Position numbers and translations under genes: made by a program
Assembly: GCA_029263335.1 (NCBI GenBank)
Contig: JAJCXS010000038.1
Coordinates: 5,823 to 69,822, forward strand
Direction: 5' to 3'
Length of the DNA stretch: 64,000 bases
DNA from: Acidobacteriota bacterium
Lineage (GTDB): Bacteria > Acidobacteriota > UBA890 > WLXD01
Part shown: piece after piece, positions 1,256-49,059 of the stretch
How positions within the stretch are numbered: the first letter of the stretch is position 1
How the letters are laid out: each line of letters begins with the position of its first letter
The notes under the pieces: model-generated
Databases searched by the model: none
The model's input: only the letters and a program-made list of their open reading frames with translations
Told to the model about the DNA's origin: nothing

Positions 1256-2473
1256 ATGTACGGAACTTCCTTGTGCGCGGCGGGGAGGCGATACGGCCTA
1301 GTCGTCATCATCGCGGCGGTTGCGTCCTCCGCATGCGCCGGACATAGCCTGTATGTCCGTCCCGGCGTGAGTCCGCAATGCCCGAACTGCGCCGCCGGCC
1401 CCGAACAGCTGGACACGCGCGTGTTGTTGGTTGGCGACGCTGGCGAATTCGACCCGGACAATCCCGCGTTGCAGGTTCTTGCGAATGCCGCCGTGGGAGC
1501 AACCGATCGGAGCGTGGCGCTGTTTCTCGGCGACAATGCATATCCGCGCGGCCTGCCGGGAGCGAACGAAGCCGGCGTGGACGCCGAGCGCACCAACTCG
1601 GAGAAGATCCTGCAACTGCAGGTCGAGGCTGCTGGTCACGCCGGTATCCCGGCGGTATTCGTGGCCGGCAATCATGATTGGGACAAGTCAGGTCCCCGCG
1701 GACTGGAGCGACTGCAGGCGCAGGAAGCGTTTCTCGCCGAGACGACCGCGGCTGATGTGGTGTTGCATCCTACCGCCGGCTGTCCCGGGCCCACGGTGCT
1801 GGATCTGGGGGAGCGCGTGCGCCTGATCGTGGCCGACTCCGAGTGGCTGCTCCGCGCCGAGCATCCGAAGCTCACGGATTGCACCTGGGGCGCGCCGGGC
1901 GCGCTGTTGCCCCTGGCGAGCCACGACGCTGAAGGGTTCTACTCGGCGCTTGCCGAGGCGGTACGTAGCGCGGGCGATCGCAGGATTCTACTGGCGACCC
2001 ATCACCCCCTCAAGACCCGCGGTTCGCACGGCGGGTACTTCACCGCTAAGGAATTCTTTTTTCCGCTGACGCTGGCCAAGAGCTGGCTGTATCTGCCGAT
2101 ACCAGGGCTGTACCCGCTACTGCGTTATGGCATCGTGCGATCCGATCAGGATTTATACGGTTCACGCAATCGCGAGATGGTGCGCCGCATCGAAGAGGTT
2201 CTGGCCACGGCGGCCAGCGCCGCGATCGCGGCCGCCGGACATGAACACACGCTTCAGGTATTCGATGACCCGGCGCTGCCGATCTGGTATCTGGTCAGCG
2301 GATCGGCAGCCAAGCTAGGCGCGACGGGCAAGACCGACGACACCATCTTCAAGCACGCTGCTCCCGGCATCATGGTGGTCGACTTCTTTGTCGACGGTCG
2401 CGTGTCAGTACGCGTTGTCGAGGTCGACGCGGCAGGAGTGCACGAGGTCTTCGCGCTCTGGCTGGGCGAGTAG
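1256..2473 (+). CDS. Metallophosphoesterase, purple-acid-phosphatase type, probable lipoprotein
   Basis: Motifs GDAG, GDNAY, GNHD, HHP and GHEH occur in the canonical order. A hydrophobic N-terminal stretch ends in ASSAC (lipobox-like). Confidence 0.8.
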   Translation: MYGTSLCAAGRRYGLVVIIAAVASSACAGHSLYVRPGVSPQCPNCAAGPEQLDTRVLLVGDAGEFDPDNPALQVLANAAVGATDRSVALFLGDNAYPRGLPGANEAGVDAERTNSEKILQLQVEAAGHAGIPAVFVAGNHDWDKSGPRGLERLQAQEAFLAETTAADVVLHPTAGCPGPTVLDLGERVRLIVADSEWLLRAEHPKLTDCTWGAPGALLPLASHDAEGFYSALAEAVRSAGDRRILLATHHPLKTRGSHGGYFTAKEFFFPLTLAKSWLYLPIPGLYPLLRYGIVRSDQDLYGSRNREMVRRIEEVLATAASAAIAAAGHEHTLQVFDDPALPIWYLVSGSAAKLGATGKTDDTIFKHAAPGIMVVDFFVDGRVSVRVVEVDAAGVHEVFALWLGE

Positions 2474-2482
2474 TTCCTACAG

Positions 2483-3139
2483 CTACGCGGGCTTTGGGGT
2501 AGCTGTGGGCGCCGCCAGGCCGCGCCCCATCGTCCGCTGCAGGTCGCGCACGAACGCGCTGACTTCCGGAACGCTGGAGGGTAGTGGCGACCCTGCGAGC
2601 AACTCGCGCACCTGCTTGGTAGCGAAGAAGAACACCAGGCTCCCGAGCAGGCTCAGATGCGTGACGTACGAGTTGACGTTGGTGAACGTGCCCTCGCGAA
2701 CGCCCTGATCGATGATGCCCTGCACCAGTTTGAACAACTCGAGGAAGCGCGGCAGGAGATCCTCGTCGATGTGCAGCCCGCCCGACAGGACCTCGCGAAT
2801 GACCATTACCGGCAGCGCGGGTTGTGTTGCGGCGAGGTCGGCAAAAGCAAAGATGAAGTCGCGCAGACGATCGTCGGCCGGTGCGTCGGAATAGCGGATC
2901 TCGTGGAACCGGTCGTGCGCCTCGTTCAGGGTCGCCGCCAGGATCTCGTTATACAGACTCTTCTTGCCACCAAAGTGGTAGCTGATCATCGCCTTGTTGA
3001 CGCCGGCCGATTGCGCGATCTGGTCGACCCGCGTGCCATCGAAGCCGCGCTCGGCGAACAGTTCGGTGGCAGCGTCGATCAGAGCTCCACGAGTGGCCTC
3101 GGAGCTGCGGCGCCGCTTTTCGGAAATCCGATCATTCAT
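2483..3139 (-). CDS. TetR/AcrR family transcriptional regulator
   Basis: N-terminal HTH (LIDAATELFAERGFDGTRVDQIAQSAGVNKAMISYHFGGK). The ATG at 3139 was chosen over the upstream GTG at 3163. Confidence 0.9.
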   Translation of the reverse strand: MNDRISEKRRRSSEATRGALIDAATELFAERGFDGTRVDQIAQSAGVNKAMISYHFGGKKSLYNEILAATLNEAHDRFHEIRYSDAPADDRLRDFIFAFADLAATQPALPVMVIREVLSGGLHIDEDLLPRFLELFKLVQGIIDQGVREGTFTNVNSYVTHLSLLGSLVFFFATKQVRELLAGSPLPSSVPEVSAFVRDLQRTMGRGLAAPTATPKPA

Positions 3140-40755: not shown

Positions 40756-40825
40756 TCCGGCGGGTCAATAGGTCGTGACCGAGTGCGCCGGAATCTTGTC
40801 TCGATCGCCTAACCGACGGTGCCGT

Positions 40826-41419
40826 ATGCCCGTCTTACACACAGACATGGACAACAGCCTTCCCGAAGTCATAGCCCGCGCACAGGCGGGAGAAGAAGAG
40901 GCCTTCCGCATGCTCGTAGAGCAGCACAGTCGCAATGTGTTCAACGTGGCCTACCGCATTGTAGGTAACTCCGCAGACGCCGAAGAGGCAGTGCAGGAGA
41001 CGTTCCTGAAGGTCTTCAAGCGTCTGGGCAGCTTCGAAGAGCGCGCACGTTTTACGACATGGCTGTACCGCGTGGCGGCCAACGCCGCGATGGATGTTGT
41101 TCGCAGGCGGCAGCGGCACGCCACCCGCGAGGCTGTCCTCGAGGATCAGGAGGGGCAGCTCCTCCCGTTCGCGGCGGAGGCGCCCGGGCCCGAGCGCGAA
41201 GCAGAGGGTGGAGAGATTTCGGACCACATCTCGGCGGCGATGGATCGACTGACCCCGGGGGAGCGCGCGGCCTTCACGTTGCGCCATCTGCAAGGGCTGT
41301 CGATCAGGGAGATCGGCGAGGCGCTCGACATGCAGAGCAACGCCGTGAAGAACTCGATTTTCCGAGCAGTTCAAAAGATGCGGCGCGAACTCGCGCCGTT
41401 TGCGAGAGAGACGTCATGA
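40826..41419 (+). CDS. ECF RNA polymerase sigma factor (ECF2)
   Basis: AEEAVQETFLKVF, FTTWLYRVAANAAMD, LTPGERAAFTLR and VKNSIFRA. Confidence 0.93.
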   Translation: MPVLHTDMDNSLPEVIARAQAGEEEAFRMLVEQHSRNVFNVAYRIVGNSADAEEAVQETFLKVFKRLGSFEERARFTTWLYRVAANAAMDVVRRRQRHATREAVLEDQEGQLLPFAAEAPGPEREAEGGEISDHISAAMDRLTPGERAAFTLRHLQGLSIREIGEALDMQSNAVKNSIFRAVQKMRRELAPFARETS

Positions 41420-42195
41420 AGCATCCGAACGAACAGGAAATAGTCATGTCGATGCTCGGCGACGGGGATGACGCCGGGGGCATCCAGGCCCATCTGGAGG
41501 AGTGCGCCGAGTGTCGTGCGCAGGTAGCCGACATTGAACGGCTCCTGGCCGTCACGGCGGAGCTGGAGGTGCCCGAGCCCGATGCCGGCTTCGAGGCGCG
41601 CATCTGGGAGCGGCAGCAGGTACAGCTGCGGCAGGCAGCGCGCCAAGAGCGCGAAGCTCAGGTGGAATCGGCGACGGTGATCCCCTTCTGGACGTTGCGG
41701 CGCCTGGCCCCGGTTGGTGCCATGGCAGCGATGTTGTTGGTCGCGTTCATGGTCGGTCTCTACAGTTCGCCACCGGGGACGGAAATCGTGCCTGAAGGCA
41801 GCGCCCCGAGCGGTGACAGGGTGCTCTTCGTCGCCGTCGGTGACCATCTGCAGAGCGCCCGCATGGTGTTGGTCGAATTGGTCAACGCCGAGGGTAACGA
41901 GAGCGTGGACATCTCGGCCCAGCAGGAGCGCGCGCAGACGTTGTTGGCCAACAATCGACTCTATCGCCAGACCGCCCAGCTGAACGGGCAGGCCAGCGTG
42001 GCCGATGTGCTGGGAGATCTGGAGAGAGTTCTTCTCGAGGTCGCGCGAACCTCGGGGGAGGTGCCGGCCGAGGAACTCGACTGGCTGCGTGAGCGGATCG
42101 CATCCCGCGATCTGCTGTTCAAAGTAAGTGTGATTGAAGGACAGACCCGACGAGCCGCGACCGCGGACGCCGGTGACCCAACGGCAACGTTGTGA
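41416..42195 (+). CDS. Zinc-binding (ZAS) anti-sigma factor, single TM helix
   Basis: ATGA overlap with the ECF2 stop. N-terminal His plus HLEECAEC (HxxxCxxC), then one TM helix. Confidence 0.85.
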   Translation: MKHPNEQEIVMSMLGDGDDAGGIQAHLEECAECRAQVADIERLLAVTAELEVPEPDAGFEARIWERQQVQLRQAARQEREAQVESATVIPFWTLRRLAPVGAMAAMLLVAFMVGLYSSPPGTEIVPEGSAPSGDRVLFVAVGDHLQSARMVLVELVNAEGNESVDISAQQERAQTLLANNRLYRQTAQLNGQASVADVLGDLERVLLEVARTSGEVPAEELDWLRERIASRDLLFKVSVIEGQTRRAATADAGDPTATL

Positions 42196-42206
42196 GGAGA
42201 AACGAA

Positions 42207-43481
42207 ATGCGAATCGAACGAGTTCTGCGAATCGGCATCGTGGTAATCGGCGCCGTCGTGGCGCTGCCCCTGGCCGCCCAGCAACGCACCGCGGTGCCGA
42301 CGTCGGAAGCCAGGGCACCGCTGCCCCCTGTGTCCGGGCAGGTCAATGAGGCTTACGACGAGGCCACCGTGGCTTTGGACCGCGGCGACTATGCGCGCGC
42401 CATCGCACTGTTCTCCGAAATCGCCAACGGGCAGGGCGATCGTGCCGACGCCGCTCTGTATTGGGTCGCGTATGCGCAGCAACGACAGGGCGACCGCGCC
42501 GGAGCCGTGAACACGCTCGGCATTCTGCGTCGGGAGTTTCCCGACAGTGCATGGCTGGATGATGCCGACCATCTGGTAGCCGAGATTCAGGGTGCCAGCG
42601 GCCGCGTGCGGGGCGCTCCTCGTGCCGACGAAGACAAGGCCGAGGACATTCGGCTCTATGCGCTCAACGCGCTCATGCACGTCGACGCCGAGAGGGCCGT
42701 GCCGCTGCTCGAGCGCATGATTCGCAGCGATGAGCCGGCGAAGATTCGCCAACGTGCCCTGTTTGTCCTGCTGCAGGCGCACGGCGACGAGGCCTTCGAA
42801 TTGATCGCCGACGTGGCCCGGGACGATTCCGAGCCGGAGATGCGGACCTATGCGCTGCGACATCTGGGGATGTTCGGCGGAGAGAGGGCCGCTGCGCTCA
42901 TGGATGAGATCTACCGGCAGTCGGACGATACCGAGGTCAAGCAGGCCATCATCGCCGGCTACATGATGAACGGCGGCACCAAGAAGCTCTACGAGATTGC
43001 CAAGAGCGAGCCGGTGCAAGAGCTTCGTGTCGTCGCTATTCGTCATCTCGCGATGTCGGGTGGTGCGGACGAGCTCTGGGAGCTGTACGAGAGTGAGAGC
43101 TCCGTCGAGGCGCGAAAAGCGATCCTGGGAGCGGTCTTCATGACCGGAGACTCCTCGCGCTTGCTCCAGGTGGCACAGACCGAGTCCGACATCGAGCTGC
43201 GACGGGCCGCGATCCGCGGTCTGGGCATGGTTCGTCACCGAGGCGAGGGGTCGGGGGGCGATTTGGCGATGGCGCTGCTCGATCTGTATCGCACCAATGA
43301 CGATGTCGAGCTTCGCGAGGCCGTGCTGAACGCGCTGTGGATGCGCGGCGAGGCACGTCCATTGATCGGACTCTACGAAGAGACCGACGATCCGGATCTC
43401 CGGCGACGTATCGTTCAGGCACTATCGATGGTGAATGACGAGGAGGCGGTCGCCTTCCTCATTCGCATCATCGAGCAGTAG
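42207..43481 (+). CDS. Secreted TPR + HEAT-repeat protein
   Basis: Signal peptide; TPR-like GDYARAIALF...ALYWVAYAQ...FPDSAW; about seven HEAT-like units. RBS GAGGAG. Confidence 0.75.
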   Translation: MRIERVLRIGIVVIGAVVALPLAAQQRTAVPTSEARAPLPPVSGQVNEAYDEATVALDRGDYARAIALFSEIANGQGDRADAALYWVAYAQQRQGDRAGAVNTLGILRREFPDSAWLDDADHLVAEIQGASGRVRGAPRADEDKAEDIRLYALNALMHVDAERAVPLLERMIRSDEPAKIRQRALFVLLQAHGDEAFELIADVARDDSEPEMRTYALRHLGMFGGERAAALMDEIYRQSDDTEVKQAIIAGYMMNGGTKKLYEIAKSEPVQELRVVAIRHLAMSGGADELWELYESESSVEARKAILGAVFMTGDSSRLLQVAQTESDIELRRAAIRGLGMVRHRGEGSGGDLAMALLDLYRTNDDVELREAVLNALWMRGEARPLIGLYEETDDPDLRRRIVQALSMVNDEEAVAFLIRIIEQ

Positions 43482-43485
43482 GGAA

Positions 43486-44631
43486 ATGCTGTCGAAGTAC
43501 GCCAGGGTGGCAGTCGCCAGCCTGGTCCTGGGAATCAGCCTCGCGGTTTCGGCCACGACACCTCAGCAGCAGGTTGGGCAGGGCCGAGAAGGCGGGGAAC
43601 CGCGTGGAGTCAAGCACGCCGACCTCGAGCAGCGCGCCTTGTCGGGTGACCTGGGCGCGACGATTGGTGACGCCGGCGGCAGCGCGGGCGTCGCATGGGT
43701 CGGGTACAGCGTACCGGCGGTACACGACGGCGGGTCCATGTGCTGCCACTGGAGGGATGACGAGGGCAGCGACCGTTGCGGAGTCTGTCGACTCGGACGG
43801 CGTGGCGCCTACTCCGATGACGAGGGCTCCGATCACGTGGGCGATGATCACGACGACGGGGTCCTCCTCGACGAGGATGGGCGCGTTCGCGTCTTCGTGC
43901 GCGTCGAAGACGGGAAGATCAGTCGCATCCAGTCGTTCTCGTCGCGCTGCGTGATCGACGCCGGCGGCGCACGAGTTGCCTGGCTGCGGGAGGTGAGCGG
44001 AGCGGCGAGCGCCGAGTGGTTGGCCACGATCGTAGAAGACCGCTTCGGCGGCGAGCGCTCCGACAAGGCGGTCGAAGGTGCGCTCTCGGCGCTGGCGATG
44101 CACGATGGCACCGCCGCTCTCAGTCTGCTCGAGGAGTGGGCGACGGGGCGTCACCCGCGCAAGCTCCGGGAACAGGCGATCTTCTGGCTCGGCGCGGCAC
44201 GTGGGGCCGAGTCATGGACAACGCTGGTGCAGCTCGTGACCGACGCGCCCGACCGGGCGATTCGCGCCCGCGCCGTGTTCGCCTCCTATGTTGCGAAGCA
44301 GCCGGGGACCGTGGACCTGCTGATCGGCGTGGCGCGGAACGACGATGCCACGTCGGTGCGGCGCTCGGCCTTGATGTGGCTCGCACAGCTTGCCGGAGAG
44401 CGCGCGATCGAGGCGATTCAGGCTGCGCTCGATGATCCCGACACCGACGTCAAGCGGCATGCCGTGTTTGCGCTCAGTCAGCTCCCAGCCGATCGAGGCG
44501 TGCCGTTGCTGATCGCCATCGTGCGCGAGAACCCGAACCCGGAGGTTCGCAAGCAGGCGCTGTTCTGGCTCGGACAAACAGGGGATGAGCGGGCGCTCGA
44601 ACTCATCGAGGAGTTGCTGGTCGGGGCCTGA
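43486..44631 (+). CDS. Secreted HEAT-repeat protein with Cys-containing N-terminal domain
   Basis: Signal peptide; CCHW...C..C...C; HEAT units LREQAIFWLG, VRRSALMWLA, VKRHAVFALSQ and VRKQALFWLG. Confidence 0.75.
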   Translation: MLSKYARVAVASLVLGISLAVSATTPQQQVGQGREGGEPRGVKHADLEQRALSGDLGATIGDAGGSAGVAWVGYSVPAVHDGGSMCCHWRDDEGSDRCGVCRLGRRGAYSDDEGSDHVGDDHDDGVLLDEDGRVRVFVRVEDGKISRIQSFSSRCVIDAGGARVAWLREVSGAASAEWLATIVEDRFGGERSDKAVEGALSALAMHDGTAALSLLEEWATGRHPRKLREQAIFWLGAARGAESWTTLVQLVTDAPDRAIRARAVFASYVAKQPGTVDLLIGVARNDDATSVRRSALMWLAQLAGERAIEAIQAALDDPDTDVKRHAVFALSQLPADRGVPLLIAIVRENPNPEVRKQALFWLGQTGDERALELIEELLVGA

Positions 44632-44660
44632 CGATGGTCACCGGTATCGCGACGAGAAGA

Positions 44661-44695
44661 AAAAGCCCCGCCCGGGTTTTCCGGGCGGGGCTTTT
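44661..44695. terminator. Bidirectional intrinsic terminator
   Basis: AAAAGCCCCGCCCGG-GTTTT-CCGGGCGGGGCTTTT, between convergent genes. Confidence 0.85.
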
Positions 44696-44718
44696 CCTTG
44701 GAGAGCGGTCTCTGCTGC

Positions 44719-45072
44719 TTAAGCTACGAGCTCGCGGGCCAGCGCGGCGTCCTCGTTCTCGAGGTTCTCGCGGATGAGCTGCGGCGTGACGCCCACATAG
44801 TTGCAGACTTCCTCGAACCAGCTGCTCTCGAAGAACTCGCGAGGATCTCCGTCCTCGGTCATCTGGCGCAGCTTCTTGCGGTCGTACCGCGACTTGCGCT
44901 CCTGGCCAGCCATACGCTGCAGGAAGCGGTAGTCGTTGACCGCCAGCTCGATGATCGACAGATACATCTGACGGCAAGACTCGACGTCGTGCTGTTCGAT
45001 GCTCTCGGTTACCCGGCCGGGGATTTCCACATCGGAATAGAGTTCGAAGAACTCTTGAGTTGCTGTGGCCAT
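44719..45072 (-). CDS. Small acidic cytoplasmic hypothetical protein
   Basis: 117-aa ORF with plausible codon use and a purine-rich RBS region, ending at a strong terminator. Pattern IIELAVNDY...FFESSWFEEVCNYVGVTPQLIR. Confidence 0.7.
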   Translation of the reverse strand: MATATQEFFELYSDVEIPGRVTESIEQHDVESCRQMYLSIIELAVNDYRFLQRMAGQERKSRYDRKKLRQMTEDGDPREFFESSWFEEVCNYVGVTPQLIRENLENEDAALARELVA

Positions 45073-45132
45073 TGCTCTTACTCGCTTGTGCGGTTGTTGT
45101 CCAAAGTCTATGGCGTAGTTATACAAAACTTC

Positions 45133-45175
45133 TGGATAAGAAAACAACCCCGTTGCACAATATTTGGATAAGAAA
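45133..45175. repeat. Exact 11-bp direct repeat TGGATAAGAAA x2 (candidate operator sites)
   Basis: Copies at 45133-45143 and 45165-45175 (32-bp period) in an AT-rich divergent intergenic region. Confidence 0.7.
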
Positions 45176-45181
45176 TATATT
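45153..45181 (+). promoter_or_regulatory. Sigma70-like, probably leaderless promoter of the MerR regulator
   Basis: TTGCAC-N17-TATATT; the ATG follows 7 nt later and there is no RBS. Confidence 0.6.
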
Positions 45182-45188
45182 TTGAGCC

Positions 45189-46070
45189 ATGCAGTACTCG
45201 ATCAAGGCCGCTGCGATGGCCACAGGAGTCTCCGAGGGGCGCCTCAGAACCTGGGAAAGACGGTACGGAATCCCGCAGCCGAACCGCTCCGCCAGCGGCC
45301 ATCGCAAGTTCAATGACGACGATCTCTATGTGATCCGTCGCATGGCGGCCCTCATCGATTCGGGCATGGGTGCGGCCGAGGCCGCAGACGCGGCGAGCAA
45401 TGAGAGCGGCGACGAAAGACCCGAGCCCGTAACTCCACAGCGCGCCAATCCGCTCGTGGATCTGTTTGTCCAGAAGGCTCACGACCTGGACGAGGGTTGG
45501 ATGGTGCGGATCGTCCGAGACTCGGTCTTCTCCAGTGGCTGGGCGCCGACCATGGAGCGAGTGGTTTTCCCCAGTCTTCGTCGCCTGGCGCAGGACTGGG
45601 GTGAAGCCCGGATCTCGATGGCGCACAACCGCTACGCGATGGAGACGGTGCGCACCCTGCTGTCGGCAGAGCTGGTGAAGCTAGGTCCGGTTGAAGATGC
45701 GCGCGGCACGGTACTGCTGGCTGCTGCCGAGGACGACGAGTACGACCTGGCGGCGCTGGCGCTCAGCCTGCTGCTCCGCCTCGTGGAGCTGAAGGTGTAT
45801 TTCGTTGGACGCTCTGTCAGCTGCCAGTGCCTGATCGAGACCGCCAGACAGCTCAACCCGAGCGCGCTGGTGATTGTGGGGACGCGCCGGGCGAGCCCCG
45901 GCAGACTCAACCGGTGCGCGCGGGCGATCGTTGCGAGCCGGCTGTCGACGCCGCTTCTGGTAGGCGGCTCGATATTGACGCGTCGTGACGCGCCGCAGAT
46001 CCCCGGTGTGCACCTGCCGCAGTCGCTGGTGGCCTCGGCCGAGCGCATTCAGCAGGCCGCCGAGGGCTAG
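45189..46070 (+). CDS. MerR-family HTH regulator with CarH/LitR-like cobalamin-binding-fold C-terminus (ligands not conserved)
   Basis: YSIKAAAMATGVSEGRLRTWERRYGIPQPNRSASGHRKF, followed by a four-helix cap and a Rossmann-like domain. Confidence 0.85.
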   Translation: MQYSIKAAAMATGVSEGRLRTWERRYGIPQPNRSASGHRKFNDDDLYVIRRMAALIDSGMGAAEAADAASNESGDERPEPVTPQRANPLVDLFVQKAHDLDEGWMVRIVRDSVFSSGWAPTMERVVFPSLRRLAQDWGEARISMAHNRYAMETVRTLLSAELVKLGPVEDARGTVLLAAAEDDEYDLAALALSLLLRLVELKVYFVGRSVSCQCLIETARQLNPSALVIVGTRRASPGRLNRCARAIVASRLSTPLLVGGSILTRRDAPQIPGVHLPQSLVASAERIQQAAEG

Positions 46071-48493
46071 TGCTCGTCACCTGATTGACGCGGCGTCGGC
46101 AACAGGTGCAGCGTTGAGACCGCCGCATCGGTAGCCGCCGCGGTGCTCCAATGCACGCCGTGTAGCAGCCCGTCGCGGTACATGGACAGCTGATCGTCGT
46201 AGTGTTCGTCGTAGGGGTGTCCGGACTGGCCCCCGGGCAGCACGCTCAGTGCCAGGTCGGGATCGGTCGGGTCGGAGATCCAGCGCATGGAGGGGCCGTA
46301 GGCGATTCGCTCTCGGTTGCCGCCCGAGAACGTGCCGAAGGCCGCCACCGTGGTATCGGACCCTGGCCAGGGCGTCGGCCCGCGGTTGAACGTTGCACCG
46401 AGCAGCGGCACCGAGCCGAGCGGGTTCTCGAGATGTAGTTGGTGGAGCGTTCCATAGCCCCACTCGTCGGGCGCGGGTCCCCAGCGGTCAACGGCGCTGC
46501 TCCAGGAAGAAGCCAGAACCGAACTCAGCACTTCGCTGCGAGTTTCCACCGCCGCGGTGCCGGCGTTGTCGAACCAGTCGAGCCGTGCCTGACCCCTCAT
46601 GATTCGAAGCAGGCGCTTGCGTAGGTCGATGCGCCCGACCCTGTGCCCGTTGGTCTCATCGAAGATGGCCGCAGGCAGGGCACGCTCGACGAGGGCAAAG
46701 AGCGCGGCCGCCCCGCTTCCGCCCATGGTTCCGTCCCAATCCGCCAACAGGGCCCAGGCTTCCGCCGCCTCGCCTTGCCAAGGTCCGGGGCCGATCAAGG
46801 CGACCAGCTGCAGGGCGTACAGCGAACGGACGTCCATCTGGACCTGGGCCATTTCCTCGAGGGCCCAGTCGGCGCGGCTATCGAGGATCGCCGTGATCCG
46901 GTCGGCGCGGTGCCCCGTATCGAAGTCGGCGCTGGGGTGTGCCTGTCGACCCATTCCCACGGCGCCATCGATGGCAGCGTTCGCAGTGACGATGCGGTCG
47001 ATCTCAGGCCGCATCACGGTGCGGTTCGAATGCTGCGGGTACAGCCCGAGCCAGTGCGCTGCGCTGTCCCAGGCGGGCGATGGCAGCCGGCCGGTCGCGT
47101 TTCGACGCTGTGGCACCCGCCCTATGGCCGTGAACAGGAGTGAGCCGGTTCGATCTGCGGCCACGAGGTTCTGCGCTGGCGCCACCCACTGTTCCAGCTG
47201 GCCGACGAGATCCTCCACCCGCCGTGCGCGGGCCAGGGCGAGTGCCGGCGCCGGCAGGTCGCCGGGAGTGGCTCCGGTCCAGGCCAGCGAGCGAGCGGGG
47301 AGGCCTTGCTCCGCATCCGCGGGCAGCAATACTCCGATGTCGGTGAATCGCACCGTGGCGATCTCGGACGACCCGTCGCCGTGGATGATCTCCTCGGCGT
47401 CCACCGTGACATCAAGCCAGCCGCCGGCTCTTTGAACCCGACGGAGGTCATCACTGGCGCGTTCGAAGAAGACGTCGTGATCGTCGAGCATGACGTTGGT
47501 AAAGGCCCAAGCGAGGTCTGGCCCCTGGCCCAGGACCACGAACGGAAAGCCGGGAAGGGTCATGCCCGCGGCGGAGTACCCGGGCGCGTGGAGCGAGGCC
47601 TGATACCAGATCGACGGCAAGCGCAGGGGCAGATGGGGGTCGTTCGCGACAATGGGGTGGCCGCTGGCGGTGAACGATCCACCCAGCGCCCAGTTGTTGG
47701 AACCGGGGCTCTGCAGCGGCGGAAACAGCGGCGCGGCGGCCAGCTGTCCATCGCGGGTCGACTCGCTAATGCGGGTGGCCAGTGGCGGTGCGGCCGCGAG
47801 TTCGACGATCTGAGGGGGGAGATCGCGTTCGGCAAGATCGGTGAGGTCGGAGAACCGAGCTACTCCGAGGTCGCGCAGCGCGATGAAGCGGTCCTCCTCG
47901 GGTCGTCCCTGGAAGAACGAGAGATCGTGGGCCATCTGTAGCTGGAAGTACGCGCTGTCGAGCACGGTCCACGGCGCGGGCACCACGCGCAGCAGCCGCA
48001 GCTCCGGCGGCAGATCGCCGCCACGCTCCGCCAGCCAGGCATTCACGCCCTCGGCGTAGGCCTCCAGTAGGAGGCGGGATTCGGGGCCGAGCGCGGCTAC
48101 GCTGGCACGCGCGTAGCGCCGCATGCCGAGCTGCACGAAGTAACGATCCGACGGCAGAGCCAGGTCGCCAACGACCTCGGCGAGACGGCCTGCTGCCATC
48201 CTGCGACCGAGTTCGAGCTGCGTCATGCGATCGTTGGCGTGCAGGTAGCCAACGGCTCTCGCCATGTCGGACACACTGTCCGCCTGGACATGGGGAACTC
48301 CCCATCCGTCGAAATGCACCGAGACCGGAGCATCAAGGCCGTTCAACACGGCGTCGCCGGATCGGCGCGGCAGGCCTGTTGTCGCGAGCACCCACCAGCC
48401 GGCGATCGCCACGATGAGAGCGCCTGCGGCAGCAATCGCCAGAGCCGCAAGCACCTGCCGACCGGGTCGGCGAGGGGAGGCGACGTCGCTCAC
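46067..48493 (-). CDS. Penicillin acylase family (Ntn-hydrolase, S45), membrane anchored
   Basis: FDGWGVPH, GYLHANDR, GSNNWAL (catalytic Ser), ANDPHL and PGGQSGHP. The GTG start overlaps the upstream TGA. Confidence 0.9.
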   Translation of the reverse strand: MSDVASPRRPGRQVLAALAIAAAGALIVAIAGWWVLATTGLPRRSGDAVLNGLDAPVSVHFDGWGVPHVQADSVSDMARAVGYLHANDRMTQLELGRRMAAGRLAEVVGDLALPSDRYFVQLGMRRYARASVAALGPESRLLLEAYAEGVNAWLAERGGDLPPELRLLRVVPAPWTVLDSAYFQLQMAHDLSFFQGRPEEDRFIALRDLGVARFSDLTDLAERDLPPQIVELAAAPPLATRISESTRDGQLAAAPLFPPLQSPGSNNWALGGSFTASGHPIVANDPHLPLRLPSIWYQASLHAPGYSAAGMTLPGFPFVVLGQGPDLAWAFTNVMLDDHDVFFERASDDLRRVQRAGGWLDVTVDAEEIIHGDGSSEIATVRFTDIGVLLPADAEQGLPARSLAWTGATPGDLPAPALALARARRVEDLVGQLEQWVAPAQNLVAADRTGSLLFTAIGRVPQRRNATGRLPSPAWDSAAHWLGLYPQHSNRTVMRPEIDRIVTANAAIDGAVGMGRQAHPSADFDTGHRADRITAILDSRADWALEEMAQVQMDVRSLYALQLVALIGPGPWQGEAAEAWALLADWDGTMGGSGAAALFALVERALPAAIFDETNGHRVGRIDLRKRLLRIMRGQARLDWFDNAGTAAVETRSEVLSSVLASSWSSAVDRWGPAPDEWGYGTLHQLHLENPLGSVPLLGATFNRGPTPWPGSDTTVAAFGTFSGGNRERIAYGPSMRWISDPTDPDLALSVLPGGQSGHPYDEHYDDQLSMYRDGLLHGVHWSTAAATDAAVSTLHLLPTPRQSGDEH

Positions 48494-49059
48494 GGCCGGC
48501 GCAGGGGCGCGGCCGCGATGCGTCCCGGGCCGTGTCCGAGCTTGAGACTGGCGACGCACCGTTCGATCAGCGCGGTGACCTCCGAGTAGCGCTCGGCGTA
48601 GTGGGCCCACACGAGAATGTAGGGCACGCCCCGGTGTACCAGCACGACCCGCCGTCGCTGAATTCTGCCCGCGACGGAACCGCGAACGGCCAGCGAGGAG
48701 TGCACCTCGATGCCGTTGATTACCGTCCAGCCCTCCTCGATGATCTCGTCGTCGGCGCTGATCGTGGCGAACAGGTCGTTGATGGCATTGTGGGCCTGAC
48801 TGGCAGGCGCGTCCGGGTCGAGCGCCGATTCCCGGTCACTCATTACGGTGAAATGCGGAAACCCGTCGTTGGCCCCGATGAAGTACAGCAGGATGGTGGG
48901 GCCGCGCATGAAGCCGATCTTCCAGAGGCTCGGCCGGTCGACCACGAGGCCGTCCTCGCCGATCTCGACAGCTACGGTCGGTTCCTCCGAGCCGTCCTGG
49001 GCAGGCACCGGAACAGCCCAGCAGAGCAGGGCGACGAGGACGAACATTCTCAACTTCAT
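48490..49059 (-). CDS. Secreted hypothetical protein
   Basis: Signal peptide ending VPA-QD; coupled to the acylase by a GTGA overlap; TATCCT lies 6 nt before the ATG. Confidence 0.65.
   Translation of the reverse strand: MKLRMFVLVALLCWAVPVPAQDGSEEPTVAVEIGEDGLVVDRPSLWKIGFMRGPTILLYFIGANDGFPHFTVMSDRESALDPDAPASQAHNAINDLFATISADDEIIEEGWTVINGIEVHSSLAVRGSVAGRIQRRRVVLVHRGVPYILVWAHYAERYSEVTALIERCVASLKLGHGPGRIAAAPLRRP

Follow-up and report, generated by a model that had tools for sequence, protein, structure and literature searches.

A CarH/LitR-type MerR regulator without cobalamin motifs and its divergent small gene in one Acidobacteriota family

A 64,000-nucleotide (nt) stretch of DNA from an Acidobacteriota bacterium (contig JAJCXS010000038.1; the whole stretch is called the window) contains at 45189..46070 on the plus strand a gene for a MerR-type regulator of 293 amino acids (aa) plus stop, which has the CarH/LitR fold and lacks the motifs for binding cobalamin (vitamin B12). 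The losses are derived, arose stepwise and are fixed in a clade of 27 sequences; they are not due to chance. The best explanation, which we favour with moderate confidence, is a CarH-derived, B12-independent local repressor resembling CarA of Myxococcus xanthus. The first-pass annotation had proposed that the protein is not a photoreceptor for adenosylcobalamin (AdoCbl); every published sequence criterion supports this, and the proposal is very probably correct.

The regulator shows the three-part architecture described in the first-pass annotation, a MerR helix-turn-helix (HTH) followed by a cap and a Rossmann domain. The winged-helix DNA-binding domain (DBD) comprises residues 1-70 (45189..45398, plus strand), the four-helix cap residues 89-165 (45453..45683, plus strand) and the Rossmann-like domain residues 170-285 (45696..46043, plus strand). 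Searching 5.8 billion proteins yielded 126 homologs, and 113 of these were aligned. Pfam detects MerR_1 at residues 3-69 (E 4.5e-13), and the recognition helix R-x-W-E-R-R-Y is present in the DBD (R20, W22, E23, R25, Y26), these residues being invariant in the 113 homologs. The B12-binding family PF02310 reaches 18 bits at residues 174-264, which is under its cut-off of 32.1, the cap family PF02607 gives no Pfam match, and with 78.8 bits the NCBIfam CarH equivalog stays below its cut-off of 400. The best sequence matches in the PDB are CarH/LitR of Thermus thermophilus (5c8d, 3whp; E 2e-12). An AlphaFold model calculated from the 113 homologs has a mean predicted local distance difference test score (pLDDT) of 92.4. 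Its twelve top Foldseek matches are chains of T. thermophilus CarH (TtCarH) only (5c8f/5c8d/5c8e), and the isolated TtCarH cobalamin-binding domain superposes on the model with a template modelling (TM) score of about 0.8 and a root mean square deviation of about 3.4 Å. Pfam, the model confidence and the Foldseek matches thus bear out the architecture. Other assignments were considered. A full-length match to MlrA/BluR was not found (NF011617, 40.9 bits against a cut-off of 417, residues 3-77 only). The features of class II LitR are likewise absent, as a full Rossmann domain is predicted and no LOV gene lies among the neighbours. A PADLOC match of residues 1-49 to mad1 was set aside as generic HTH similarity.

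The residues that bind B12 in TtCarH were located in the regulator by HMMER, by MAFFT with the TtCarH fragment added and by Foldseek, which all gave the same register. According to the alignment to the PDB sequence and the MAFFT alignment, W131 of TtCarH corresponds to W137, H132 to G138, E141 to N147, H142 to R148 and the lower axial ligand H177 to Y185. The Asn147-Arg148 codons lie at 45627..45632 and the Tyr185 codon at 45741..45743, both on the plus strand. The losses reported previously, W-GEARISMAH-NR in the cap and Tyr in place of the ligand His, are therefore confirmed by the alignment to TtCarH. An alternative His at a ligand position was ruled out, since all three methods share this one register.

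The CarH cap motif G-x-x-W-x9-E-H reads A134-x-x-W137-x8-H146-N147-R148 in the regulator, and the consensus of the 27-member clade is W-x8-A-H-x-R-[FY]. Positions 147-148 are occupied in the clade by V, L, N or M followed by Arg (25 members), Lys (one) or Gln (one); EH is found here in 80/80 canonical relatives. The Gly of GxxW is likewise Gly in 80/80 canonical relatives and N, T, S or A in the clade. The classic B12 motif D/E-x-H-x2-G-x41-S-x-T/V-x22-27-G-G appears as D183-E-Y185-D-L-A188...V230-G-T232...G259-G260, with the stretch around Tyr185 reading EDDEYD; its His, Gly and Ser are lost, and T232 and the GG pair are retained. The light-responsive cobalamin-binding domain has an experimentally derived signature consisting of GxxW, EH, GxxH and GxxxP (SignatureFinder, PMC11796333). 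Two of its eight residues remain, W137 and G207. The others are replaced by A134 for Gly, by N147-R148 for EH, by D182 and Y185 for the Gly and His of GxxH and by S211 for Pro. Two motifs define CarH homologs (PMC8156234), and the regulator fails both. The contacts between subunits are changed as well. In TtCarH, R176 and D201 (which form a salt bridge) and G192 build the head-to-tail dimer and the dimer of dimers (PMC9304148, PMC8156234); here they are replaced by E184, S209 and E200, respectively. Of 62 canonical relatives, 56 have R, 57 have D and 50 have G at the respective positions.

To order the losses, the sequences were placed in a maximum-likelihood tree, in which the regulator falls among CarH-like sequences of Acidobacteriota and Dehalococcoidia. 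EH together with the ligand His is carried by 81 of the 113 aligned homologs; a survey of motif states over 120 homologs likewise yielded 81 canonical sequences and a clade with Tyr or Phe at the ligand position. The regulator lies inside the 27-sequence clade, which has a Shimodaira-Hasegawa-like approximate likelihood ratio test (SH-aLRT) support of 100 and was found in one Acidobacteriota family. Its members have in common W-x8-A-H-x-R-[FY], D-[DE]-x-[YFH]-D-x-A-A and the Gly-to-Ala exchange. The 27 sequences sit in turn within a larger clade of 31 sequences (support 99), whose basal pair (P0030, P0031) is fully canonical. In the next pair (P0028, P0029) EH is gone (P-I-Q), and His and Gly are kept. 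EH was thus lost first; in the one Acidobacteriota family the lower His then disappeared, along with the Gly residues of ExHxxG and GxxW and the Ser of SxT. A different set of residues was lost in the ortholog L029 (47% identity; genome G153, about 1952-2821, minus strand): EH is changed to N-I, Ser to His, Thr to Ala and GG to Y-A, the lower His and Gly being kept, and the gene is still accompanied by the small gene and the conserved promoter core described below. Daughter lineages therefore eroded different B12 residues after EH had been lost, as would be expected if B12 binding was no longer under selection from then on. The exchange of H142 for Arg also arose independently outside the clade, in P0074 (G-E-R), P0080 (G-A-R) and P0098 (H-E-R), and loss of the adenosyl cap by this exchange may be a repeated evolutionary route.

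The sensor domain is strongly constrained and not decaying. Mean pairwise identities of DBD, cap and Rossmann domain are 0.74/0.66/0.66 in the clade compared to 0.70/0.38/0.48 in the 62 canonical relatives, whose DBD divergence is similar to that of the clade. The ratio of nonsynonymous to synonymous substitution rates (dN/dS) in cap and Rossmann domain is 0.02-0.14, in the same range as in the DBD (Nei-Gojobori method, orthologs with unsaturated dS of 0.2-0.9). One could regard the gene as a decaying relic, a former photoreceptor drifting to loss of function in a lineage that does not need a light response; several B12 motifs are lost, no photolyase match was found in the genome of the window, and only 4/26 genomes of the order have such a match. 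We consider this reading extremely improbable, as the low dN/dS holds for all three domains, an intact single-copy open reading frame (ORF) is present in 11/11 genomes of the family, new invariant motifs have appeared and the promoter and repeat core is conserved. The dN/dS values and the intact gene in the 11 family genomes led us to reject drift and pseudogenisation. The first-pass annotation had left it open whether the substituted residues are unconserved drift; they turned out to be fixed in the 27 sequences.

The new invariant residues are concentrated in two loops. After strand 3, the loop G231-T-R233-R234-A-S-P237 (45879..45899, plus strand) has G231, R233, R234 and P237 invariant in the clade; canonical relatives are variable in this segment (A-T-x-x-x-x-L). 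Directly after GG, the loop S261-I-L-T-R265-R266-D-A-P269 (45969..45995, plus strand) varies in the clade only at position 262 (V/I), S261 and L263-P269 being identical in 27/27 members; it is variable in canonical relatives. In the cap, H146 is invariant (27/27) and R141 is found in 24/27, and both positions vary in canonical relatives. The corresponding loops in B12-binding Rossmann domains carry the corrin and its nucleotide tail. In the regulator, the new basic loops face the acidic loop D182-D183-E184-Y-D186 at this former corrin and nucleotide-tail site. They might interact through salt bridges within the domain, contribute to an interface or create a new site for a ligand.

The last possibility can be formulated as a corrin pocket rebuilt for a small molecule other than a corrinoid, anionic and perhaps aromatic (a nucleotide, a flavin or a phosphorylated metabolite), which would switch oligomerisation or DNA binding. 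This reading overlaps with the best explanation. In its favour, the sensor domain is under tighter constraint, relative to the DBD, than that of canonical relatives, its dN/dS is about 0.05 and residue 185 stays aromatic (Y, F or H). The invariant Arg-rich loops are located at the C-terminal ends of strands 3 and 4, the ligand-binding side of flavodoxin-like folds. However, a specific ligand cannot be proposed, none of the neighbouring genes suggests one through a metabolic or transport function, and a contact surface for another protein or a network of internal salt bridges would account for the same features. We consider it rather unlikely.

Two further ideas of the first-pass annotation concern Tyr185, which was suggested to ligate haem, and the SCQC sequence in the Rossmann domain, which was suggested to sense redox state or a metal. 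Tyr is indeed a ligand of haem iron in some other proteins, and the CxC is present in the window protein (C212-Q-C214, 45822..45830, plus strand). In the 27-member clade, however, position 185 is Tyr in 21, Phe in four and His in two members, and in the tree the two His185 sequences are nested among Phe and Tyr sequences. Phe cannot ligate a metal, and haem ligation by Tyr185 was therefore rejected; the exchange between Tyr, Phe and His shows that an aromatic side chain is required here and not a hydroxyl group or a metal ligand. Only the six closest sequences (identity of at least 83%) have C214, as CHC or CQC; C212 occurs in 15/27 members of the clade. Of the CxC proposal, the motif itself stood and its redox or metal role did not, because C214 is limited to these close relatives. 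Taken together, sensing by haem or by the CxC is very improbable.

Another alternative is that the regulator still senses a corrinoid in a non-canonical way, base-on or with His146 at the upper face, binding hydroxo- or aquocobalamin instead of AdoCbl and reporting B12 status or photolysed B12. A precedent is the cobalamin-binding domain of HaAI-2E, which has Arg at the H177 position and still bound hydroxocobalamin (OHCbl), and not AdoCbl or methylcobalamin (PMC11796333); loss of the His consequently does not exclude every corrinoid. CtMerR (8JBS), considered as another precedent without the His, was rejected since it uses His204, which is the canonical residue. The invariant His146 (27/27), the retained GG, T232 and W137 and a genome that uses and senses B12 are also consistent with a corrinoid. 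On the other hand, the nucleotide-tail pocket is changed (G188A and S230V), the corrin-contacting Gly of GxxW, present in all 80 canonical relatives, is lost, and four invariant Arg together with the DDE-x-D loop now line the site. Phe185 in four orthologs offers no ligand, and L029 has lost Ser, Thr and GG but keeps the His, an outcome expected of relaxed B12 selection. We regard corrinoid sensing as unlikely.

The genomic neighbourhood of the regulator is conserved. In every clade member with enough flanking DNA the block consists of genes for an extracytoplasmic function (ECF) sigma factor, an anti-sigma factor, a TPR/HEAT protein and a HEAT protein, a divergent gene of 113-130 aa, the regulator and a convergent penicillin amidase gene; the divergent small gene was present at each locus that was inspected. 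The absence of adjacent carotenoid or photolyase genes noted previously was confirmed, the neighbours being the HEAT-repeat proteins, the small gene and the penicillin amidase. In the window the divergent small gene encodes 117 aa and is located at 44719..45072 on the minus strand; it starts with the ATG at 45072 (MATATQ...) and not with the upstream TTG at 45147. Across the order (26 genomes), one copy of the regulator is found in 11/11 genomes of its own family and none in the sister family (0/15 genomes), and regulator and orthologous small gene are present together in the same 11/11 and 0/15. The small genes adjacent to the regulator are at least 65% identical to the window copy over nearly their whole length; copies elsewhere in the 26 genomes match in the core only (at most 58% identity), and no regulator lies close to them. 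Wherever one member of the dedicated pair is present, the other is thus present too. As the pairing goes back to one gain of one syntenic block, this co-occurrence is suggestive and not statistical.

The pairing with the small gene seems to predate the loss of B12 motifs. The small gene is also found beside the canonical basal P0031, with different downstream genes, and a gene of matching size and position lies beside P0030. Canonical relatives outside the 31-sequence clade are without it and adjoin a heliorhodopsin gene or a pyrimidine-dimer excision gene. Because the small gene already accompanies cousins with B12 motifs, the pairing would have been acquired first and the motifs shed later. 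The full order is a gain of the partner gene together with loss of the CarH interface residues, then loss of EH, then loss of His, Gly and Ser, and finally fixation of the Arg-rich loops.

Light genes are found in the order at other loci. The sister family contains remote (24-29% identity) but fully canonical CarH-like genes, two of which adjoin photolyase-like genes (L072, G225:C473, 1249-2199; L073, G245:C393, 3-938; both with W-x9-EH and E-x-H-E-x-G); the order thus does possess a classic B12 light regulon, with another paralog. The genome of the window has no photolyase match and one SQS_PSY gene. A second, canonical CarH paralog was not found in this genome, and redundancy with such a paralog was rejected on these grounds. 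A look for expression and transcription-start data found the sequence only in DNA runs from a biofilm metagenome.

The small protein is better conserved than the regulator, 46/117 columns being invariant. It is acidic, with an isoelectric point (pI) of 4.6 (orthologs 4.3-5.0), has two invariant Cys and is predicted to be all-helical (pLDDT 75.6). No Pfam, NCBIfam or PADLOC family and no significant fold match in PDB or BFVD was found for it; a weak match points to phrog_7024 (function unknown). An exhaustive profile search yielded 96 representative relatives of about 90-145 aa. In the phylum, the family is present in 26/401 genomes, all of one order (0/375 others), with 1-8 copies per genome; a single, incomplete assembly has fewer than two. 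In rare cases a relative carries a fused HTH or PilZ domain. The genome of the window encodes further paralogs in unrelated contexts (C170:18317-18586, C19:6341-6613, C209:11726-11995 and C209:13712-13939). A general role of the family as MerR partners was rejected, since these four paralogs and all copies of the sister family are without such a neighbour.

The 116-bp intergenic region between the two genes (45073-45188) is AT-rich and contains a conserved core of about 65 bp (45116..45181, no strand assigned; TAcTTATACAaannntnTGcanAagAAAAcAacCCCCgTTGCncAAtTTtTGnnnAaGAAnTAnnnT), which is conserved in 17 distinct orthologous loci, including loci with canonical regulators. Within the core lie two direct repeats of 20 nt on the plus strand, CAAAACTTCTGGATAAGAAA at 45124..45143 and CACAATATTTGGATAAGAAA at 45156..45175, which lie 32 bp apart with 80% identity. 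They share the exact 11-mer TGGATAAGAAA, which is found nowhere else in the window (0/100 shuffles reach two matches). A consensus scan detected a promoter-like site for the regulator, TTGCAC-N17-TATATT (45153..45181, plus strand), with repeat copy 2 in its spacer. The -10 element ends 7 nt before the ATG, and the same geometry (7-10 nt) is seen in 20/20 loci. A Shine-Dalgarno sequence is not present before the regulator ATG (45176-45191). Since the -10 element ends so close to the start codon, the regulator mRNA is probably leaderless. For the small gene, a promoter-like site was read by eye on the minus strand (45118..45147), with TTGTTT (45147-45142), an 18-nt spacer that holds repeat copy 1 and TATAAC (45123-45118). 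Across the loci, the two hexamers are conserved; the consensus scan did not call this leftward promoter. A protein sitting on both repeats would block both promoters, which makes the repeats a candidate operator. The combined repeat and promoter patterns occur nowhere else in the 4.07-Mb assembly. A wider regulon was rejected for this reason, and the uniqueness of the site argues that the regulator acts locally. That it is a local regulator of the divergent pair is likely, and that it represses rather than activates is somewhat less certain but still probable.

The regions flanking the pair show further features. A GC-rich hairpin, AAAAAGCCCCGCCCGG-GTTTTCC-GGGCGGGGCTTTT, at about 44659-44697 separates the HEAT-repeat gene from the small gene and resembles a bidirectional terminator, although a consensus terminator scan did not call it. 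The genes for the ECF sigma factor, the anti-sigma factor and the two HEAT/TPR-repeat proteins are located upstream at 40775-44631 of the window and are syntenic in all relatives. At the other end, the stop codon of the regulator overlaps the 3' end of the convergent penicillin amidase gene (46067-48610, minus strand) by 4 nt (46067-46070), and the convergent layout is kept across the clade, with an overlap or a short gap.

From these data we propose the following mechanism. The ancestor would have been an AdoCbl-dependent CarH/LitR photoreceptor-repressor, from which the DBD and the cap-plus-Rossmann fold were kept while B12 photochemistry was presumably abandoned. The charged loops and the aromatic residue 185 may fill or re-line the old pocket, so that the domain, like that of CarA in Myxococcus, could adopt a holo-like and assembly-competent form in the absence of cobalamin. 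The resulting oligomer would then bind the two 20-nt direct repeats, one in the spacer of each back-to-back promoter, and repress its own leaderless gene and the divergent 117-aa gene. Relief would probably come from an input other than a corrinoid, which could be a partner protein or a small anionic ligand and would act on the DBD or on the remodelled pocket. The acidic small protein is one candidate for this input, by analogy with CarS, LOV proteins and BluF. A bolder version, which we put forward only tentatively and consider rather unlikely, is that the CarH domain has been turned into a non-cobalamin sensor. The four invariant Arg, the DDE-x-D loop and the aromatic residue would then receive a new anionic ligand or the 117-aa protein as antirepressor, giving a two-gene switch confined to one family.

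Several points weigh against the B12-independent repressor. The loss of B12 binding is read from the sequence alone, the GG motif, T232, W137 and the invariant His146 are still in place, and the HaAI-2E domain bound a corrinoid with Arg in place of the His. B12 is available in the cell, because the genome contains B12-binding ORFs sized like MetH (1216 aa) and mutases (699 and 1161 aa) and two cobalamin riboswitches. The co-occurrence of regulator and small gene reflects a single evolutionary event and not repeated independent evidence, and the four other small-protein paralogs in the genome have no MerR neighbour, which weakens the case for the family as such acting as antirepressor. Finally, the operator assignment is drawn from conservation and position only, and the conserved bases could all be promoter elements.

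CarH is a model B12 photoreceptor and an optogenetic tool, and CarA is the one B12-independent offshoot known in detail. The clade described here is an independent and more radical offshoot than CarA, and surviving intermediates allow the steps to be ordered. If the domain assembles without cofactor or binds a new ligand, it would illustrate the conversion of a light switch that depends on a cofactor into another kind of switch, and it would provide a cofactor-free CarH scaffold for comparison; should it be a novel sensor, the change of input of a photoreceptor could be traced here. The clade also cautions that labels such as "MerR family / B12-binding" or "light-induced regulator" are not evidence of B12 or light sensing.

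Compared to CarH and class I LitR (TtCarH, PDB 5C8D/5C8E/5C8F; Bacillus megaterium; Myxococcus xanthus), the regulator has the same three-part architecture and fold and has kept the RxWERRY helix and the Trp of Wx9EH, and its putative DNA site likewise overlaps its own promoter and contains direct repeats. Unlike CarH, it has N-R for EH and Tyr for the lower His, the Gly, Ser, Gly and Pro of ExHxxG, SxT, GxxW and GxxxP are lost, the R176-D201 and G192 contacts are replaced and carotenoid or photolyase neighbours are missing. CarH operators consist of tandem 11-bp TnnACA units (PMC9304148), whereas the repeats found here are 20 nt long and 32 bp apart.

The B12 independence of CarA has been put down to the loss of Wx9EH, and its repression is relieved by the acidic 111-aa protein CarS (PMC8156234, PMC9304148). 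The regulator resembles it in being a CarH-derived repressor with a damaged Wx9EH, a CarH-type DBD and a small acidic protein as possible partner. CarA has kept ExHxxG..SxT..GG and EH without the Trp, whereas the regulator has kept the Trp and lost EH, His, Gly and Ser. CarA is restricted to Cystobacterineae, together with CarS; the regulator is of independent origin in Acidobacteriota and lacks the features that define CarA membership. Its small protein is all-helical, in contrast to the SH3-like CarS, and is not a CarS homolog, so that the resemblance to CarA is one of function only.

Class II LitR is the effector of a short LOV photoreceptor encoded next to it (PMC9758184). Like class II LitR (PmlR2/PplR of Pseudomonas), BluR-BluF and MlrA of E. 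coli, the regulator would be a LitR/CarH-family MerR regulator without B12 binding, and as in class II LitR a small protein encoded by a neighbouring gene would deliver the signal. Class II LitR keeps the four-helix bundle with an unrelated C-terminus, whereas the regulator keeps the whole Rossmann domain; unlike class II LitR and BluR it has no adjacent LOV or BLUF gene. With HaAI-2E it shares the absence of the light-responsive signature and the substituted lower-ligand His, and HaAI-2E was shown to be light-independent (PMC11796333). HaAI-2E, however, carries Arg at the His position in a transporter-diguanylate cyclase protein, and the regulator carries Tyr in a MerR regulator. B12-independent members of the LitR/CarH family are therefore already known (CarA, LitR classes II-V and MlrA/BluR). 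New in the present clade are a route with surviving intermediates, on which the Trp was kept while EH, His, Gly and Ser were lost, the invariant Arg-rich loops under strong constraint, and a dedicated partner gene with a conserved double promoter.

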